Virus record (IMG/VR): IMGVR_UViG_3300020057_000067
Coordinates: 1-41,250 of that record
Direction: 5' to 3' (one strand)
Origin: a virus
Taxonomy: Duplodnaviria > Caudoviricetes
Length of the DNA stretch: 41,250 nucleotides
Within the stretch, counting starts at the first letter, position 1. Each line of letters opens with the position of its first letter. Shown here piece by piece: positions 20,902 to 33,541 of this stretch. Position numbers and translations under genes: made by a program. The notes beneath the pieces were generated by a model, which ran no database searches, was not told the DNA's origin, and saw nothing but the letters and a program-made list of their open reading frames with translations.

Positions 20902-20937
20902 GCCCCGCTTCGTCCTTCGGGACGGGGCGGGGCTTTT
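20902..20937 (+). terminator. Intrinsic terminator ending the structural operon
   Basis: 14-bp GC stem with a cUUCGg tetraloop, followed by TTTT. Confidence 0.85.
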
Positions 20938-21007
20938 CGCTGTCTTGCGGCGGAAGGTCATCTGTTCACGCCCCATTGGGTCGCCGTGGGCAGGGGCTTT
21001 TCTGTTT

Positions 21008-21055: not shown

Positions 21056-21084
21056 TTGCCAAGTGTTGTAACGAGCGCTAGGGT
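21056..21084 (+). promoter_or_regulatory. Sigma70-type early promoter
   Basis: TTGCCA-17 bp-TAGGGT; ATG 9 nt downstream with no RBS (near-leaderless). Confidence 0.65.
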
Positions 21085-21093
21085 ACGTTGCAC

Positions 21094-21303
21094 ATGAAAC
21101 GGACACGGACACCCGATTGGCGCGAACAGCGCGAACAGCGCGGCCTGACACTGTCGGAGGTAGCGCGACGCGCCGGCCTCAACAAGGGTGACCTGTCGCG
21201 CATCGAGACCAAGCGCCTGGTGCCCACGGCCGACGAGGCTCGCGCCATCCTCCGGGCATTGGGCGATGACCGCGCTCCGGTCAAGGTCGAGACGACGGCA
21301 TGA
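21094..21303 (+). CDS. Cro/XRE-family HTH protein
   Basis: REQRGLTLSEVARRAGLNKGDLSRIET. Confidence 0.9.
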   Translation: MKRTRTPDWREQREQRGLTLSEVARRAGLNKGDLSRIETKRLVPTADEARAILRALGDDRAPVKVETTA

Positions 21304-21923
21304 CCATCCAACAGATGCCGACCGAACGTCCGCATGAGAGCGTTGTAGTCCCTGGTCGACACAAGGACATCGAGGCCGATATCTTCCGTGAGAGCGAAGC
21401 TCTTCCTGGCCTCGATGTCCTTATCTCCCGCGTCCTGCGACTCAGCGAGGAAGAGGGCCTGACGCTGGCGCTGGCTGCGGTCCGCGTCTACCTCGCCGCG
21501 ACGCTCGACGACGACGCACGGGACACCCTCGCTGTCCGCGGGCTTGCGTCGATGGCAGGCGATATCGCGGGACGCTTCAACCGGCTACCCGACGAGTCGG
21601 CCGGCAAGGACGATCGGGCCGCGTTCCTCGGTCGCTTCCAGCTCAACACCCGCCACTCACCGGCTGCGCTGGCTGACGTGATGCAACGGGTCCGCCTGGT
21701 GGGTCACGACGGCCTGGTCAGGCCGCTCATCGACTTCTCGATGGATGACGTGAGGTCATTCCGGTCGCGCAGCGATGCCCAGGTCGAGGGGTGGCAGCGC
21801 CGTGTGAAGTTGATGGCCGAGTACGAGGCCGCGCTGACGAAGCACAAGGCCGCTACCGGGCGTGACCTACCGAAGGTGGTACTGGAGCGCATCAGGAAGG
21901 AAGCGCAGAAGGCATGGTCATGA
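21300..21923 (+). CDS. Hypothetical protein, candidate Tas partner; its N-terminus encodes guide units 1-2
   Basis: ATGA-coupled at both ends; helical; no recognised motif. Confidence 0.7.
   Translation: MTIQQMPTERPHESVVVPGRHKDIEADIFRESEALPGLDVLISRVLRLSEEEGLTLALAAVRVYLAATLDDDARDTLAVRGLASMAGDIAGRFNRLPDESAGKDDRAAFLGRFQLNTRHSPAALADVMQRVRLVGHDGLVRPLIDFSMDDVRSFRSRSDAQVEGWQRRVKLMAEYEAALTKHKAATGRDLPKVVLERIRKEAQKAWS
21321..21410 (+). ncRNA. TIGR-like guide units 1 and 2
   Basis: ACCGA-ACGTCCGCA-TGAGAGCGT-TGTAGTCCC-TGGT (21321-21356) and GCCGA-TATCTTCCG-TGAGAGCGA-AGCTCTTCC-TGGC (21375-21410). Unit 2 is closed by a perfect 15-bp stem. Confidence 0.75.
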
Positions 21924-22870
21924 CCGGCGCCGCTGACATCGTCGTGAGCGAAGCGCGTCTTGGCGCCGAACCACAGCTTGAGAGCGAGCTTCCGCCTGGC
22001 GCCACTACGCGCTACATCGATGCGAGCACCGAGCTACTCGGCCAGCTCGCATCGATGTGGATGGACTTCCAACAGATGCGCAAGGCGGCCGCTCAGCGTG
22101 GCCTCACCGACAAGGACGTGGCGGTACTGCTCAAGGTCGAGACGCACTTCGGCGATCAGCTCAAGAAGGCGCTACGCCAGCACGTCCTGTGGGATGGCTT
22201 CCTTTCGGAACTGTCAGGACTAGGCGGTGTCCATACAGCGCGCCTCATCGCCCGTATCGGTGACCCGCGTCGGTTCCCCGGCCAGCAATGCACGATGGGA
22301 CATACGTTCGTTCCGACAAATAGATTGGGCAGTTGCCCGTTTCAAGCTGTGGACGGCGAGCATTGTCCCGGCATCGTGCAGGAGCCACGTCGGGGGACCG
22401 GCACGCGGTCCGTGTGGCACTACCTCGGCCTCCATGTCGTCAACGGTCGCAGCCCGCGCAAGCAGAAGGGGCAGCAGGCCGACTGGGACCCGCTGGGGCG
22501 CACCGCCGTCCTGCAGCCCGACGGCATCGCCGACGCCATCGTGCGCAACCGCGTGCCGCGCTACCGCGACATCTACGACGACAGCAAGGCGCGCTTGATA
22601 AGGGAGCGCGGGGCCGACAGCCGGAGTGAGGTCGACGCCCTGCCTGGCCCCGACGCTCCAGACCACACAAGGGCGGAGGCCGAGTCGCCGTATGAGATCG
22701 AGCCTACGCATGGCCTCCGCCCATTCGAGTCTGACCGTATCGCCCGCAAGATCGCTGCCAAGGCGTTCGTGGGCGACCTCCTGCAGGAGTGGAAGCGCAG
22801 GGCCGATACGCCCGATGTGAGCGATTTCGAGCCTGGCCCCGCTTCCGCTCCTGCCGAGGCAGCAGCATGA
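21920..22870 (+). CDS. IS110/Nop-domain RNA-binding protein without nuclease domain (TasA-like)
   Basis: LWDGFLSELSGLGGVHTARLIARIGDPRRF, SVWHYLGLH, PRKQKGQQADWD, YRDIYDDSKARL and ARKIAAKAFVGDLLQEW resemble the IS110 C-terminal/Nop fold. No RuvC DEDD or HNH motif. Associated with dual-spacer repeat units. Confidence 0.75.
   Translation: MTGAADIVVSEARLGAEPQLESELPPGATTRYIDASTELLGQLASMWMDFQQMRKAAAQRGLTDKDVAVLLKVETHFGDQLKKALRQHVLWDGFLSELSGLGGVHTARLIARIGDPRRFPGQQCTMGHTFVPTNRLGSCPFQAVDGEHCPGIVQEPRRGTGTRSVWHYLGLHVVNGRSPRKQKGQQADWDPLGRTAVLQPDGIADAIVRNRVPRYRDIYDDSKARLIRERGADSRSEVDALPGPDAPDHTRAEAESPYEIEPTHGLRPFESDRIARKIAAKAFVGDLLQEWKRRADTPDVSDFEPGPASAPAEAAA
21929..22000 (+). ncRNA. TIGR-like guide units 3 and 4 (tandem, 36-nt period)
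   Basis: GCCGC-TGACATCGT-CGTGAGCGA-AGCGCGTCT-TGGC then GCCGA-ACCACAGCT-TGAGAGCGA-GCTTCCGCC-TGGC. Confidence 0.75.
22613..22714 (+). ncRNA. TIGR-like guide units 5 and 6
   Basis: GCCGA-CAGCCGGAG-TGAGGTCGA-CGCCCTGCC-TGGC (22613-22648) and GCCGA-GTCGCCGTA-TGAGATCGA-GCCTACGCA-TGGC (22679-22714), each with its own closing stem. Confidence 0.75.
22802..22837 (+). ncRNA. TIGR-like guide unit 7
   Basis: GCCGA-TACGCCCGA-TGTGAGCGA-TTTCGAGCC-TGGC; closing stem GGAAGCG..GGGCC with GGCCCCGCTTCC. Confidence 0.75.
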
Positions 22871-23142: not shown

Positions 23143-23501
23143 AGCCGGAAGTCATCCTCCCCTTCGCGGAGAACGAACGCGCCCGCATGCTCCTGTCGCT
23201 GCTCTCTCGCGGCCCCGCTTCGACGCTGGACCTCCAGCGTGACCTGCCACTGGTGCATGTGGCCAGGCAGGTGTGGGAGTTGCGCCATTGGTACGGCTAC
23301 GAGATCAGGACGACACGACTCCCGAACCGGGTAGCGGTCTACAGACTCGTCGGGAAAGCGCGGATGAGCGTCATCCCCCCGCAGTCCCCGACGTGCCCGA
23401 AGTGCGCCAACTCGCTCAACGATATCAAGGCCACGCTGACCGACGGCATCCTCGATGGGCGCTGTCGTGACCACGGGCGGACGCTGGTGAGGGTCGCATG
23501 A
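23139..23501 (+). CDS. Winged-HTH plus zinc-finger protein
   Basis: LLSLLSRGPAST..HVARQVWELRHWYGYEI..VAVYRL; CPKC...CRDH. Confidence 0.7.
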   Translation: MKPEVILPFAENERARMLLSLLSRGPASTLDLQRDLPLVHVARQVWELRHWYGYEIRTTRLPNRVAVYRLVGKARMSVIPPQSPTCPKCANSLNDIKATLTDGILDGRCRDHGRTLVRVA

Positions 23502-23884
23502 AAGCCCTCGCCCTCGCCGCCGTGCTCACCCTCACCGCCGTGCTCACCCTCACCGCCGTCCCCGCCGATGCGCGCATGAGCGAAGACGTGTTCAGGGCTC
23601 GTGTCTGGCTCAAGGGCCAGATGCACCCGTGGCAGTTCGCCTGCCTGCACCGCTTGTGGAGCAACGAGAGCGGCTGGCGCGTCGATGCACGTGGACCGAT
23701 GACCCGATGGGGCCGTGCCTATGGCATCCCGCAGGCGTTACCCGGACGAAAGATGCGGAGTGCCGGGAGCGACTGGCGCACCAACGCCATGACCCAGGTC
23801 CGCTGGGGTCTGAGTTACGTCAAGGCGCGCTACGGCGGACCCTGCCGGGCGCTGCGTCACTTCCGGGTGGTCTCGTGGTACTAG
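23498..23884 (+). CDS. Secreted lytic transglycosylase (SLT/lysozyme-like)
   Basis: Signal peptide; CLHRLWSNESGW, AYGIPQALPG and TQVRWGLSYVKARYGGPC. Confidence 0.85.
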   Translation: MKALALAAVLTLTAVLTLTAVPADARMSEDVFRARVWLKGQMHPWQFACLHRLWSNESGWRVDARGPMTRWGRAYGIPQALPGRKMRSAGSDWRTNAMTQVRWGLSYVKARYGGPCRALRHFRVVSWY

Positions 23885-28295: not shown

Positions 28296-28597
28296 GCGTC
28301 GGAGAGATGCGACAGACGGTGCTGCTCCGGGACAAGCGCTGCGTGGCCGCGCTGGTGGACCCGGCCGCCGGAGTGTGCTTCGACGAATGGGGCCACGAGT
28401 GCAGCCCGTGGGACATGAGCCGACTCGAAGCCGACTACGTCCGTCACGGCGCCATCGGAGCTCGCCACGTCCTGCCCGAGGACCACATCGCCCTTTGTGC
28501 CGGACACCATCGTGGGACAGGTCCACAGGCGGGTCGAATCTGGGCCACGTCGCATCGTCGTGAGCTGCGGGACCGACTCGCCGGGGTGCGACGATGA
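28292..28597 (+). CDS. Degenerate HNH-like protein
   Basis: RQTVLLRDKRCV...C...LEADYV...IALCAGHH. Confidence 0.45.
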   Translation: MSVGEMRQTVLLRDKRCVAALVDPAAGVCFDEWGHECSPWDMSRLEADYVRHGAIGARHVLPEDHIALCAGHHRGTGPQAGRIWATSHRRELRDRLAGVRR

Positions 28598-31221
28598 TCG
28601 TCCACGGCGACTGCGTCGAGGTCATGGCGGGCATGGAGCCTGACAGCATCGACGCCATCGTGACGGACCCGCCGTACGGGTTGGAGTTCATGGGCAAGGA
28701 ATGGGACCGGCTGGACGGTGCAGGCTTCCACGCGCCGAAGGACGAGGGCCGGACGTTTACCAACGACAGCGGCCACATGTACGACAACCTCAAGGCGCTT
28801 CCGCGCTTCGGCCATGCCGCTCATATGCAGCAATGGCACCAACGCTGGGCCACCGAAGCCCTGCGCGTAGCCAAGCCCGGCGCCTACCTGCTCGCGTTCG
28901 GTGGCACCAGGACGGTCCATCGCCTCACCGTGGCGCTGGAGGACGCCGGCTGGATCATCAGGGACATGCTCGTGTGGGCGTACGCGTGCCTGTCCGACGA
29001 TACGGAAGTGCTCACGTCTGATGGGTGGGTACGGTACAATAGCGCCAGTGAAGGACAACTCGCAGCAGCGTTCGACCCGACCACCGGAGCCATCCGGTGG
29101 GAGCCCATCGAGCACGTCCACCGATACCACCACGAAGGCGACATGGTGGAAGTCGGCCCGTCGCTGGTCACGCTCAACCACCGGGTCGTCCTAGATGCCG
29201 CGGATCGTGTACCACTTCCCGGTGACGCGGACCTGCGTGGCCTGTGGGGCCGAGTTCCCGACATGGGACAGGTACCAGGCGACACGAGCGAAGTCGTGCT
29301 CGACCGTGTGCCGGTCGGCTCTGCTGTCGCAGGGGCGAACGGGGAAACTCAAGCCGATGGCCGACCGCAAGGGCCGGCTCATCCGCTGCGCGGTCTGCGA
29401 GACGGAAGTCTGGAAGCCGGACGCATGGCTGCGATCGGTCGCCGCGCCGACATGCTCCCGGTCGTGCAACGGCAAGCTGCGGGCGGCGGCGCTGGTGGCG
29501 GCTCCACGTCCCGAGTGGACCCCGGAGCGCCGCGAGGCTGGCCGGGTGCGCATGACCGGCCCGAACAATCCCGCCTGGAAGGGCGGCGTCACCGTGTTCA
29601 AGAAGCATGGGAACTACTCGGGCGTCCGGTACGTGCGCTCGCCGGAGTGGGCGCGTCCGATGGCACGCGGGGATGGCTACGTGATGGAGCACCGGCTGGT
29701 GATGGCATCGGCCTGCGGCTTCCTGATGACGCGCACCGAGGTCGTGAATCACGAGAACCACGTCCCGTCCGACAATCGACTGGACAACCTGACCATGTGG
29801 CCCGACAACCGGACGCACAAGCTCTACGAGTGGGGGAAGTGCCCGCTGGGGACAGCGAACCGGACACGGTACGCACCGTCCCGTATGTCGGAACCGTCTG
29901 GTGCATCACCGTCCCCAGCGGGGCCTTCGTAGCCCGTCGCAACGGCGTCGTGTTCGTCACCGGCAACAGCGGCTTTCCGAAGTCCAAGAGCAGCCTCAAA
30001 CCAGCCCACGAGCCGATAGTCCTTGCGAGGAAGCCGGGACCGTTGCAGCCGTTGCGCATCGACGAGTGCCGGATCCCCGTGAGCGATGACGACAGGCTCA
30101 ACGACGCCGTATACGTCCGCTCCGGCAAGAACAACAGCGCAGTCTACGGCGCCGATAGCCGCGAAGCAGGACGCTGGCTGATGGCAACCGTTGGCGGTCG
30201 CTGGCCTAGCAATCTAGTCCTCACAGACCCCGTCTTCGATGGCGGCTGGGATGGCGTAGTGGGCGGGGGGAACGCTGGTGGCGGCTACGGCGTGCGAGGT
30301 GGCGGTGGAGATGGGGCGTGGAACCCTACCGACCGCGACAAGTCGCCGGGCCAAACGATAAGGGGCGGCGGCGAGGCTGTCGGCTACGGCGACACCGGCA
30401 CCTACTCACGTTTCTTTCTTGTGCCGAAGGCGTCACGGCGAGACAGGGAACCGGACGTGCCGGGTGCGCTGGAAACCACACACTGCACCTGTGAAACTGT
30501 TAAACTAGGGGCATGGGAAAACGAGGGCCTAAGCCAGCCCGACCAGACGGCTTCCACGTCACAGCCAAGGGCTATCTCCGGGGCAACGTCGAGGGACGGC
30601 TTCGACTCGCTCATGTCGTCGAATGGGAGCGGCACTTCGGACCCGTCCCACCCGGACAGCATGTCCACCACATCAACGGCGACAAACAAGACAACCGGAT
30701 CGAGAACCTCCAGGCCGTCGATACCGTCACCCACAAACGGCTCCACTCTGGCTCGAAGCTCATCGATGGCGAGTGGTGGAAACAGTGCTCCATCTGTAGC
30801 CTCTTCCGACCGCTTGACCTCGAATGGTGGTACTTCTCAGCCGAAGGCTGGCCCCTCTACGGACGATGCCGCCCCTGCCATATCAGGCGCGTCGTCGAGT
30901 CCAAGCGTCTGCGCAAGCTGCGGGCTGCCTCCGCTTCGTGACCAGGAAGGCGGTGATGCTGGTCGGCGTGGACGTGTGAACGTCCACCCGACCCAAGCCG
31001 TGAAGCCCACCGCGCTAATGCGCCATCTCATCCGCCTCGTGACACCGCAGGACGGCACCATCCTCGACCCATTTCTCGGCAGCGGCACTACCGCCAAGGC
31101 CGCGACGCTGGAAGGCATCAAGTGGGTCGGCATCGAACGCGAGGCCGAGTACATCGCCATCGCGGAGCAACGTCTTGTGGGCCTGGTGCCCGAACCAGTG
31201 CAGATGGGGCTGACGGCATGA
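28594..31221 (+). CDS. DNA N6-adenine/N4-cytosine methyltransferase with an intein and a second insertion
   Basis: HGDC, IVTDPPY, LKPAHEPI, HPT..VKP and LDPFLGSGTT motifs, interrupted by two large insertions. Confidence 0.9.
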   Translation: MIVHGDCVEVMAGMEPDSIDAIVTDPPYGLEFMGKEWDRLDGAGFHAPKDEGRTFTNDSGHMYDNLKALPRFGHAAHMQQWHQRWATEALRVAKPGAYLLAFGGTRTVHRLTVALEDAGWIIRDMLVWAYACLSDDTEVLTSDGWVRYNSASEGQLAAAFDPTTGAIRWEPIEHVHRYHHEGDMVEVGPSLVTLNHRVVLDAADRVPLPGDADLRGLWGRVPDMGQVPGDTSEVVLDRVPVGSAVAGANGETQADGRPQGPAHPLRGLRDGSLEAGRMAAIGRRADMLPVVQRQAAGGGAGGGSTSRVDPGAPRGWPGAHDRPEQSRLEGRRHRVQEAWELLGRPVRALAGVGASDGTRGWLRDGAPAGDGIGLRLPDDAHRGRESREPRPVRQSTGQPDHVARQPDAQALRVGEVPAGDSEPDTVRTVPYVGTVWCITVPSGAFVARRNGVVFVTGNSGFPKSKSSLKPAHEPIVLARKPGPLQPLRIDECRIPVSDDDRLNDAVYVRSGKNNSAVYGADSREAGRWLMATVGGRWPSNLVLTDPVFDGGWDGVVGGGNAGGGYGVRGGGGDGAWNPTDRDKSPGQTIRGGGEAVGYGDTGTYSRFFLVPKASRRDREPDVPGALETTHCTCETVKLGAWENEGLSQPDQTASTSQPRAISGATSRDGFDSLMSSNGSGTSDPSHPDSMSTTSTATNKTTGSRTSRPSIPSPTNGSTLARSSSMASGGNSAPSVASSDRLTSNGGTSQPKAGPSTDDAAPAISGASSSPSVCASCGLPPLRDQEGGDAGRRGRVNVHPTQAVKPTALMRHLIRLVTPQDGTILDPFLGSGTTAKAATLEGIKWVGIEREAEYIAIAEQRLVGLVPEPVQMGLTA
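28987..29967 (+). mobile_element. Intein (327 aa) in the methyltransferase
   Basis: WAYA|CLSDDTEVLTSDGW (block A), VTLNHRV (block B), YVGTVWCITVPSGAFVARRNGVVFVTGN|SGFPKS (blocks F/G, +1 Ser). Confidence 0.92.
29195..29932 (+). CDS. HNH homing endonuclease in the +1 frame inside the intein
   Basis: CVAC/CSTVC and CAVC/CSRSC zinc fingers; GPNNPAWKGG; GYVMEHRLVM...EVVNHENHVPSDNRLDNL. Confidence 0.85.
   Translation: MPRIVYHFPVTRTCVACGAEFPTWDRYQATRAKSCSTVCRSALLSQGRTGKLKPMADRKGRLIRCAVCETEVWKPDAWLRSVAAPTCSRSCNGKLRAAALVAAPRPEWTPERREAGRVRMTGPNNPAWKGGVTVFKKHGNYSGVRYVRSPEWARPMARGDGYVMEHRLVMASACGFLMTRTEVVNHENHVPSDNRLDNLTMWPDNRTHKLYEWGKCPLGTANRTRYAPSRMSEPSGASPSPAGPS
30513..30941 (+). CDS. Second HNH endonuclease in the -1 frame inside the methyltransferase
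   Basis: KGYLR...LAHVVEWERHFGPVPPGQHVHHINGDKQDNRIENL...HKRLH; C-terminal CSIC...CRPC. Confidence 0.88.
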   Translation: MGKRGPKPARPDGFHVTAKGYLRGNVEGRLRLAHVVEWERHFGPVPPGQHVHHINGDKQDNRIENLQAVDTVTHKRLHSGSKLIDGEWWKQCSICSLFRPLDLEWWYFSAEGWPLYGRCRPCHIRRVVESKRLRKLRAASAS

Positions 31222-31243
31222 TCGCGATGCAGCGGAGGGCGAG

Positions 31244-31933
31244 ATGACCCCCTACTACTCCGACGCCTACGTGACGCTGTACCACGGCGACGGGCGGTCC
31301 GTTCGGGATATCGAGGGACTTGTAGTGACGGACCCGCCCTATAACATCGGCTTCGATTATGGCCGTGGCGGGTACTTGGACCAACTGTCTACTGGCGAAT
31401 ACGCGGAGCTGATAGCAGCGACATGTCGCCCGCCCAGCGTGGTCATCCACTACGCCGAGGCGATGTTTCCGCTGGCTGATGCTATCGGGCAAGCACCCGA
31501 GCGGTGTGTGGCGTGGGTCTATAACGGGCATTTGACGTCGCGTCAGTGGCGCTTGGTGTCGTGGTTCGGCTGCTCGCCCGACCTCGCCCTAGTCAAGCAG
31601 CCATACAAGAACCCGACCGATAAGCGGGTGGCCGCGCTCATCGAGTCTGGCTCTGACGGTCGCCCGGTCTATGACTGGTGGCACTTCGACCAAGTCAAGA
31701 ACGTGTCCGCAGACAAGACAGCTCACCCCTGCCCGGTGCCTCGTCCGCTGGTGCGGCGCATCCTGGAAGTTACGCCGGCCGCGCTCGTCCTCGACCCGTT
31801 CACAGGCAGCGGCACGACGCTTCGAGCGGCTAAGGACATCGGACGCGAGGCCATCGGGTACGAGACCGATGAGCGATGGGTGTCTATCGCGGCTCGTGTT
31901 CTCGGCCAAGAAGTGCTGGGGCTGACGGCATGA
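31244..31933 (+). CDS. DNA N6/N4 methyltransferase
   Basis: VTDPPYN, HPCPVP and LDPFTGSGTT. Confidence 0.9.
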   Translation: MTPYYSDAYVTLYHGDGRSVRDIEGLVVTDPPYNIGFDYGRGGYLDQLSTGEYAELIAATCRPPSVVIHYAEAMFPLADAIGQAPERCVAWVYNGHLTSRQWRLVSWFGCSPDLALVKQPYKNPTDKRVAALIESGSDGRPVYDWWHFDQVKNVSADKTAHPCPVPRPLVRRILEVTPAALVLDPFTGSGTTLRAAKDIGREAIGYETDERWVSIAARVLGQEVLGLTA

Positions 31934-32721
31934 CCGAGCACACCCACGCCTACACCCTGAGCTGGACCGAGGCAAGGCTGGTCGAAGCGCTCAAGAGTCG
32001 CTACGGCGAGAACGAGTGGGCGATGATGACTCAAGTCCGCCAGGGAGCTGGCTGGAACAAGCGGACATTTGACGCCATCGCCATCGGGCTGTGGGGCAGC
32101 CGCGGCCATCCGGTCCATGGCTTCGAGTGCAAGACATCGCGGTCCGACTGGAGTCGCGAGCTGGCCAAGCCCGAGAAGGCTGACCCGTTGGCCGCGTTCT
32201 GTACGTACTGGTGGGTCGTAGCCCCGAAGAGCATCGTTGACCCGCTGTCGCTGCCTCTCGGGTGGGGTCTGCTGGAGGCATGGGACAACGGCACCGTTCA
32301 CACCATCGCTGAGGCCGAGAGGCGCGACCCGGAGCCATTCACCCGCGGCTTTGTCGCCCAAGTGCTCAAACGGGCACTCGCCGCCGACCCGAACTTACGG
32401 GCGGTTCGTGAGGCCACGAAGAAGGGCTATGACCGTGGCATCTCCGAGATGGATAGCCGCCTCGAGACCGAGCGCGCATCGGCCGAGCGCGCGCGGCAGC
32501 GTGTTCGTGACATCGAGGCCGCAGCGGGGCTGCGACTCGACGGTGCCGGTCATGAGACGCTGCGCAAGTACGGCGACACCATCCGCCGAGTGGTAGAGGC
32601 CGAGGGTCGGGGCTTCGATACGCCGTTCTCGTGGCTCGAAAATGCCCGCAGACAGGCGCAGAAGTTCATCGATCGCACCGCGGATATCGCCGTGGTGACC
32701 CACCGAGATGACGCGGCATGA
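31930..32721 (+). CDS. MmcB-like PD-(D/E)XK protein
   Basis: RTFDAIAIGLWGSRG..HGFECKTSRSDWSREL..PEKA...WWVVAP. Confidence 0.7.
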   Translation: MTEHTHAYTLSWTEARLVEALKSRYGENEWAMMTQVRQGAGWNKRTFDAIAIGLWGSRGHPVHGFECKTSRSDWSRELAKPEKADPLAAFCTYWWVVAPKSIVDPLSLPLGWGLLEAWDNGTVHTIAEAERRDPEPFTRGFVAQVLKRALAADPNLRAVREATKKGYDRGISEMDSRLETERASAERARQRVRDIEAAAGLRLDGAGHETLRKYGDTIRRVVEAEGRGFDTPFSWLENARRQAQKFIDRTADIAVVTHRDDAA

Positions 32722-32900
32722 TCGAGCACATCCACGCCTTCACCCTCCCTCCCCGGACCGCGAGTGTCGAACTCGGTGACTTCCGCCGACGCTGCGCCGT
32801 CGATGGCTGCGTGGCGCGAGAGCACGTCCATCAGTGGCACGCTGGCGAATGGCCGGACCACGGGACCATCGAGCTGTGCGACTGCGGGGAGACGCGATGA
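32718..32900 (+). CDS. Small His/Cys-rich protein
   Basis: Coupled start; EHIHAF and EHVHQW repeated; CDCGE. Confidence 0.5.
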   Translation: MIEHIHAFTLPPRTASVELGDFRRRCAVDGCVAREHVHQWHAGEWPDHGTIELCDCGETR

Positions 32901-33541
32901 CCCCCTACTACTCCGACGCCTACGTGACGCTGTACCACGGCGACTGTCGTGAGCTGCTGCCGAGCATCGAGGCTGACGTGGTGGTCACTGACCCGCCGTA
33001 TGGGTATGCACATGCGAGCAACCGGGCAGATAGCGCATGGCGCGACGAGCCTATCGCTGGAGACGCTGACCTCGCGGCTCGCGATGACATGCTCGCGATG
33101 TGGAGCGGTCCTGCCATCGTGTTCGGACACTGCAAGACCGCCGCGCCCGCCGGGGCGAACGCCGTACTCGTGTGGGACAAAGGGCTAGCCTCTGGCATGG
33201 GCGACCTGGCTATGCCGTGGAAGCCCAACTGGGAGCACATCTACATCATCGGGCGGGGCTTTTCGGGCAGGCGTGACTCCGGTGTCATCACGGGGCATAC
33301 CGTCGTGACTTGGACGTCTAAGGGGCGCAGTCATCCAAACATGAAGCCCGTTTCCCTGATGGGCGACCTCATCGGGAAGTGCCCACAAGGCACCATCCTC
33401 GACCCCTTCGCAGGCTCCGGCTCCACCCTCGTGGCAGCCAAGTCGCTGAACCGCAAGGCCATCGGCATCGAGATCGAGGAACGCTACTGCGAAGTCGCAG
33501 CCACCCGCCTCCGTCAAGAAGTGCTGGGGCTGTCGGCATGA
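32897..33541 (+). CDS. DNA N6/N4 methyltransferase
   Basis: LYHGDC, VTDPPYG, HPNMKP and LDPFAGSGST. Confidence 0.92.
   Translation: MTPYYSDAYVTLYHGDCRELLPSIEADVVVTDPPYGYAHASNRADSAWRDEPIAGDADLAARDDMLAMWSGPAIVFGHCKTAAPAGANAVLVWDKGLASGMGDLAMPWKPNWEHIYIIGRGFSGRRDSGVITGHTVVTWTSKGRSHPNMKPVSLMGDLIGKCPQGTILDPFAGSGSTLVAAKSLNRKAIGIEIEERYCEVAATRLRQEVLGLSA

Follow-up and report, generated by a model that had tools for sequence, protein, structure and literature searches.

In stem-loop TIGR-Tas systems, tigRNA guides can lie in frame inside tas, at either end or internally, in disordered regions (Xu et al., bioRxiv 10.64898/2026.09.09.750476). According to the main text of that study, BlTasA yields tigRNAs from within its own coding sequence, as small-RNA sequencing showed; MbTasA is a DNA binder that represses transcription; and stem-loop Tas proteins lack the Tyr/His processing dyad. 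Guide maturation, spacer acquisition and natural targets are named there as open questions. In-frame guides in an effector gene are thus already published, and by the same account a motif-based finder detects such units. PlTasA, likewise a nuclease-free TasA with hairpin guides, is described as a dimeric DNA binder in the main published texts, which present its arrays as subarrays split by intergenic DNA and not as coding sequence (Faure et al. 2025, PMC12045711; Guan et al., bioRxiv 10.64898/2026.08.11.744272).

Here we analysed a virus record of 41,250 bases (hereafter the window; completeness rating 51%), a tailed-phage contig with genes for portal, capsid, methylases and RusA (Pfam). Its locus resembles the BlTasA and MbTasA systems in having a Nop-only effector, box C/D, two 9-nt spacers and a closing stem, and in carrying guides at the 5′ end, inside and at the 3′ end of tas, with the frame intact and in disordered segments. 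Unlike in those systems, every unit of the window is in-gene and two lie in a second, non-Tas gene; moreover, the internal site precedes the last helix in the window and is a wedge loop in BlTasA. We found no mention of a partner gene, a fixed codon register or in-place spacer swaps in the main text of Xu et al., and the CUU stem-base motif described there is not prominent in the present clade (of 208 units, 20 have it in the left flank and 29 in the right). The dual-repeat TIGR-TasR/TasH systems (9MTY, 9W04) share the Nop fold and a 36-nt core of two spacers, whereas the system in the window has no nuclease domain, constant edge repeats, 36-nt period or Tyr/His tail. A second gene also occurs in the tasParB-tasA operons, but these are described in the main text of Faure et al. 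(PMC12045711) with ParB-like proteins and dual-repeat arrays, in contrast to the stem-loop units of the window; for the partner protein, as for 52 relatives, no Pfam ParB match was seen. Finally, the “IS110-like” element of phage Omega, read as a transposon in the main text of Pope et al. 2013 (PMC3706429), consists of the same pair as the window, a partner (gp22) and TasA (gp21), together with stem-loop units that are intergenic and have CCA/CG boxes.

We consider it likely that the window encodes a phage stem-loop TIGR-TasA system with in-frame guide hairpins in flexible segments of tasA and of a partner gene, in which the mRNA is probably the guide precursor and the complex would bind DNA and block transcription without cutting it.

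The locus and its probable dual-coding guide units

Downstream of a terminator-like hairpin, an HTH gene, the partner gene P0002, the tasA gene P0001 and further small genes form an overlapped run, and the ATGA couplings reported in the initial annotation are present at 21300, 21920 and 22867. The features are:

20902–20943, + strand: intrinsic-terminator-like hairpin with a 14-pair stem and T tail; closes the upstream structural genes
21088–21303, + strand: small HTH (Cro-like) gene, Pfam HTH_31 (E 9.7e-12); first of the overlapped run
21300–21923, + strand: partner gene P0002, 207 aa; two-domain helical family directly upstream of stem-loop tasA, with units 1 and 2 in its N-terminal extension
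21321–21356, + strand: unit 1, probably a decayed tigRNA; its second C box is CGT and its stem has 4 bp; folding z −0.56
21358–21427, + strand: unit 2 hairpin, core 21375–21410; 14 contiguous stem pairs, z −4.45
21920–22870, + strand: tasA gene P0001, 316 aa; Nop-domain Tas protein lacking both RuvC and HNH; carries a conserved Cys/His insertion
21929–21964, + strand: unit 3, probably a decayed tigRNA; its variant C box reads CGC and its D box CG
21952–22013, + strand: unit 4 hairpin, core 21965–22000; z −2.50 over 21920–22020
22603–22659, + strand: unit 5 hairpin, core 22613–22648; in an insertion before the last helix, z −3.29
22671–22722, + strand: unit 6 hairpin, core 22679–22714; shares the insertion of unit 5 before the last helix, z −4.27
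22788–22849, + strand: unit 7 hairpin, core 22802–22837; in the C-terminal tail, z −3.35

A consensus promoter scan called no promoter upstream of the gene run. Outside the calls of that scan, a stretch before the HTH gene (21056–21084, TTGCCA-17 nt-TAGGGT) looks promoter-like by eye. Elsewhere in the window, three consecutive N6/N4 DNA methylase genes span 28594–33541, the first of 875 aa with a split methylase domain (Pfam), and 18-nt copies are repeated three times in tandem at 23507–23566, in the N-terminal hydrophobic stretch of the ORF at 23498–23884.

All seven 36-nt units were confirmed, at 21321, 21375, 21929, 21965, 22613, 22679 and 22802; each lies in phase 0 of its own gene and its translation matches the peptide quoted in the initial annotation exactly. 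In a leave-one-out profile test every unit scored above all 82,423 other positions on both strands, and the window, from a record rated 51% complete, holds no intergenic array or further unit (best non-unit score 15.9, compared with 20.9–27.8 for units). The units follow the pattern [GA]C-CGN-9 nt-YG-4 nt-CGN-9 nt-TG-GY, with CGA and TG as consensus boxes (in unit 2 the spacers are 21380–21388 and 21398–21406). Five of the seven conform fully to the stem-loop definition in print (box C CGA, box D TG, 9-nt spacers); in units 1 and 3 one C box is variant. Variable palindromic stems close the units, five of which fold with z of −2.5 to −4.5; unit 1 forms no stable stem. The window thus holds five intact units (2, 4, 5, 6 and 7) and two that, judged from their boxes and stems, are likely decayed (1 and 3); spacer B of unit 3 doubles as the 5′ arm of the unit 4 stem. 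What had been read as 36-nt units are instead stem-loop hairpins of about 52–62 nt, and none of 91 neighbour spacings in relatives equals 36. An Rfam search returned no match.

P0001 is a Tas protein. It matches TaTasR (9MTY; phmmer E 2.3e-8) and the NCBIfam model TIGR_Tas_endo (NF052498; E 5.9e-23, 82 bits, under the curated cut-off of 100), and in a Foldseek search with its AlphaFold model (mean pLDDT 80) ranks 1–10 were all TasR/TasH, with IS110-family proteins lower. Its residues 1–27 are low-confidence guide-coded sequence and a coiled coil begins at residue 35; since nothing folded precedes the coiled coil, the protein is a TasA. A Pfam search of P0001 gave no match and so called no RuvC, HNH or IS110 domain. 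An identity as IS110 transposase was rejected, there being neither a folded N-terminal RuvC (DEDD) domain nor a Pfam IS110 match. By sequence, residues 296–316, which follow the last helix, also include neither Tyr nor His for a processing dyad. Residues 124–149 (22289–22366) form an insertion in which C124, H128, C139 and C149 are conserved in 97–99% of 120 homologues, likely a zinc knuckle; in 12 loci this Cys/His insertion of tas carries one to three guide units.

The proposal that the units are dual-coding is supported. The segments of P0001 with pLDDT below 50 (1–27, 233–262 and 299–316) are the unit sites, their columns show 0.09–0.25 identity compared with 0.53–0.71 in the core (120 homologues), and the segment with units 5 and 6 varies from 2 to 88 residues among 85 proteins measured. 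In-frame ATG, GTG or TTG codons occur only at residues 1, 6 and 85 of P0002, and in P0001 at −1, 1 and 9 and next at 46, while the conserved domains start near residues 38 and 33, respectively. A standard start must therefore read through units 1, 2 and 4. The contrary possibility raised with the initial annotation, of later starts and of units lying on conserved structure, was examined and is contradicted: no start bypasses units 1, 2 or 4, and no ATG, GTG or TTG lies between units 1–2 or unit 4 and the conserved cores. Among relatives, 26 of 28 loci have a tas start and a partner stop that overlap at exactly −1, and 22 of the 25 loci with N-terminal units after the coupled tas start have no later start before the core. 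Moreover, in the related strain contig X6 the four substitutions listed in 22715–22799 are all synonymous in the tasA frame.

Register, copy number and spacers in related loci

Our comparison covers 43 of 47 fetched loci, after removal of the window itself (L006) and of three duplicates or near-duplicates (L036, L042 and L043); five weak loci from a GTDB genome scan stand outside the unit counts. As the loci share ancestry, none of the counts given here represents independent events. Units are present in 42 of the 43, 208 in total, on the sense strand near tas: a control for strand and place gave 209 scoring positions in sense and none in antisense (89,464 each), and one in 117,163 distal positions. 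Among the 208 units there are 200 distinct spacer pairs. Flank pairing covaries, with Watson-Crick fractions of 0.74–0.94 at stem positions 2–8 where 0.29–0.61 is expected, and the mean flank duplex is −20.1 kcal/mol compared with −8.9 when flanks are swapped. Because the flanks pair and covary, the units are stem-loop tigRNAs by the published definition. A dual-repeat array was rejected: flanks differ between units and pair within a unit, and the 36-nt spacing is missing from all 91 neighbour spacings.

The window has units at four sites, and relatives have them in no fewer than four site classes; within the tas core and tail one reading register is kept. Inside related tas genes 90 of the 91 neighbour spacings are multiples of 3. 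Phase 0 is the only one used by the 127 units of the tas core and tail, even where phase +1 would be free of stops, as it is in 102 of these units. Of a further 51 units upstream in open frame, 48 are in phase 0, two lie in the partner gene of L012 and one, in L027, is in another register. This last unit (L027:1446–1500) follows the coupled start and is read in the other open register, where the usual one would hold a stop; it is a real exception. Among 120 distinct in-gene units, phase 0 contains no stop compared with 13.9 expected with random spacers, partly by construction, and its peptides are acidic (net charge −0.17 per residue) whereas the other phases are basic. The in-gene units of actinophages, with CCA/CG boxes and stems of −9 kcal/mol or better, fall in the usual register in 13 of 16 cases, in the second in three and in the third in none.

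The initial annotation had noted that the phase keeps the TGA of the loop repeat out of frame. This accounts for the unused third register only; TGA avoidance was rejected as the full cause, as it excludes only one of three frames. Common ancestry may lie behind the preference between the two open registers, or else selection for a linker that is acidic and inert. A fixed register appears to be undescribed in the main texts of the published accounts, whose supplements could cover it.

Copy number and placement also vary. Four loci identical over 200 upstream bases have 2, 3, 4 and 3 internal units with a step of 81 nt, which indicates in-frame gain or loss, though assemblies can misjudge tandem-copy counts. 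In-frame change of copy number, as had been suggested, is thereby supported. L025, a member of the clade, has a five-unit intergenic array with a 38-nt period between partner and tas (L025:1574–1761); a change of layout is thus possible inside one clade.

Spacer turnover is seen in two related strains, each represented by a single contig with depth under 5. Compared with the window, 15 of 17 listed substitutions in contig X2 fall in spacers, which make up 36 of 153 bases, as do 9 of 16 in contig X6, and none falls in the boxes of either. Among the best 40 of 169 matches, the unit 2 spacers are replaced in both strains and both carry a compensatory stem change at 21367/21418 in unit 2. These data are evidence that related strains swap spacers in place within coding sequence.

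The partner family and cultured actinophages

With P0002 as query, 26 of the 209 ORFs upstream were matched at E<0.01, never more than one in a locus; with a family profile seeded on nine of these, 28 of 30 loci proved to have a member immediately before tas. A single-sequence search with P0002 returned only itself, and the family came to light only through neighbouring loci. The family comprises 1,011 clusters at 50% identity, with Asp150 invariant and Gly81, Gly138 and Leu190 near-invariant, and the P0002 model shows two helical domains (pLDDT 82). A guide peptide is present in 13 of 153 family members compared with 0.7 expected. Partner open frames contain 13 units, spread over 12 loci; every one is in phase 0, and the linker between the domains holds most of them. 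The one in L025 probably precedes the start. No usable match that would identify P0002 was found in Pfam, PHROGs, NCBIfam, PDB sequences, Foldseek-PDB, VIA-wide or the ESM Atlas, the PDB searches giving generic helical matches only (best Z 6.4 over 56 residues), which does not prove a new fold. Both the partner family and guides in a non-tas gene appear to be undescribed in the main published texts; supplements could cover them.

The same pair is present in cultured phages. The best four viral structure matches to the partner have 172, 190, 226 and 166 aa, the last two being labelled Rich and Omega, and genes of just these lengths immediately precede Tas in Peregrin, Morrissey, Rich and Omega. 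Six of seven phage genes upstream of Tas match the partner profile at E<0.001, and that of Omega at 0.011. Rich (genes 51/50) and BENtherdunthat (58/59) have overlapped partner and tas genes with in-gene units, as in the window; units are intergenic in Omega, Peregrin, BPBiebs31 and Bethlehem, and Morrissey has both kinds. A Tas like Omega gp21 occurs in 91 phage records and a partner like gp22 in 81, many of these actinophage genes being annotated as transposase or hypothetical. We found no description of the actinophage loci as TIGR systems in the main published texts, whose supplements could cover it.

Several of these loci have further features. In the A1 mycobacteriophages BPBiebs31 (gp75/74, L058:2184–3690) and Bethlehem (gp72/71, L062:2186–3690), the partner and TasA genes lie near the immunity repressor and a Cas4-like exonuclease gene follows two genes later; from this gene order, a link between the exonuclease and spacer change in A1 phages is possible. 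The Omega cassette of partner, TasA and array (L054:1960–4200) is flanked by two similar promoter-like stretches. In Courthouse (L057:1140–1430) both genes are absent and one orphan hairpin unit stands beside the empty site, its stem shared with Omega and its spacers different. Outside the actinophages, Microcystis phage Mvi-JY20 (L056:2662–3730) has Tas followed by a regular array that resembles the dual-repeat type, with no partner-family gene upstream.

Guide production, targets and alternative explanations

In the model that we favour, the HTH, partner and tasA genes are probably carried on one transcript, from which host RNases would also free the guides; the released hairpins would be protected by TasA. 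By analogy with MbTasA and PlTasA, the TasA–guide complex would occupy 18-bp sites on DNA and repress transcription. The targets may belong to rival phages or the host, and the partner may act as a TasA cofactor. No search revealed a natural target above chance. Six geometries with gaps of 0–2 nt were searched on the window's own contig, and in the two tandem-opposite ones nothing had fewer than three mismatches; 215 units had no ungapped match with at most one mismatch in 273 kb of loci. Against ten phage records (1.26 Mb, both strands), 61 units gave only two-mismatch matches, 13 and 12 per geometry, while a mispaired-spacer control gave about 12 per round. None of the Omega spacer pairs matched Courthouse or Omega within two mismatches. 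Exact 18-mers of the five intact units had 0, 1, 1, 0 and 0 matches in IMG/VR, and the two hits, which resemble neither the window nor the other loci, are taken as chance.

Under this model feedback is possible at two levels, by cleavage of the message or by TasA bound to a hairpin over the start codon. The second has been weighed as an explanation in its own right, in which TasA on the hairpin just past its own start blocks initiation until the ribosome finishing the partner gene melts it. The geometry suits such a switch, with a unit beginning 3–21 nt past the tas start in 25 of 26 coupled loci and the 5′ stem arm of the first unit reaching the start codon in 14 of 25. However, first hairpins are weaker (−17.3 compared with −22.6 kcal/mol; n 25 and 100; Mann-Whitney p 0.001, with kinship not corrected for), which also fits selection against blocking initiation, and the two start-proximal units of the window are the decayed ones. 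We regard translational feedback as possible but doubtful.

The initial annotation had instead suggested that guide processing would cut the effector message and could give negative autoregulation; on that view the in-gene layout would exist for this purpose. If guides come from the mRNA, excision of the internal units 5 and 6 must indeed destroy the message, and a link between maturation and translation is raised in the main text of Xu et al. A cut driven by TasA itself is not expected because the dyad is absent from stem-loop Tas proteins and from the Tyr- and His-free tail of P0001. Furthermore, Omega, Peregrin, the A1 phages and L025 have intergenic arrays and keep the same two genes; the in-gene layout is therefore dispensable, and autoregulation is unlikely to be the reason for it.

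Guides could also be transcribed from their own promoters inside the genes, the mRNA not being their precursor. The main text of Xu et al. does not distinguish processing from internal promoters, and one weak sigma-70-like match lies at 21356–21385, where 0.4 such matches are expected by chance in the scan. As the sites are scattered, each would need its own promoter within coding sequence, which makes this account rather improbable.

Partner, TasA and guides might together constitute a self-mobile RNA-guided element, given that the Omega cassette of roughly 2.2 kb is missing from 14 related records and is reported in the main text of PMC3706429 as a precise insertion with a 5-bp duplication. 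TasA has no RuvC domain, though, the promoter-like repeats at the cassette ends and the orphan unit of Courthouse fit loss or gain by recombination, and the Omega spacer pairs find no site within two mismatches in either phage; we consider self-mobility very unlikely.

Palindromic repeats can be tolerated in frame in protein loops, as are the Rickettsia palindromic elements. That the units are such repeats and not guides would agree with in-frame hairpins in flexible segments and with the lack of a target, but is scarcely credible for units that occur strictly on the sense strand and only near tas, share an exact box C/D-9-nt architecture with 200 distinct spacer pairs in 208 units, and have their spacers replaced and their boxes kept between strains.

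Read as a stem-loop TIGR-TasA locus, as we prefer, the window bears on the questions that Xu et al. leave open by offering a candidate factor, the conserved second protein, and evidence for in-place spacer swaps within coding sequence. At low confidence, we propose that stem-loop TIGR-TasA is a two-protein system in a large viral clade, in which the partner may be the missing factor that matures guides or rewrites spacers in place, inside translated sequence and in a register that keeps both proteins intact. The cultured phages, which grow on laboratory hosts, allow tests of maturation, acquisition and targets by standard genetics. If the two-protein proposal is true, Rich, BENtherdunthat, Omega and the A1 phages would let spacer acquisition and natural targets be watched directly.
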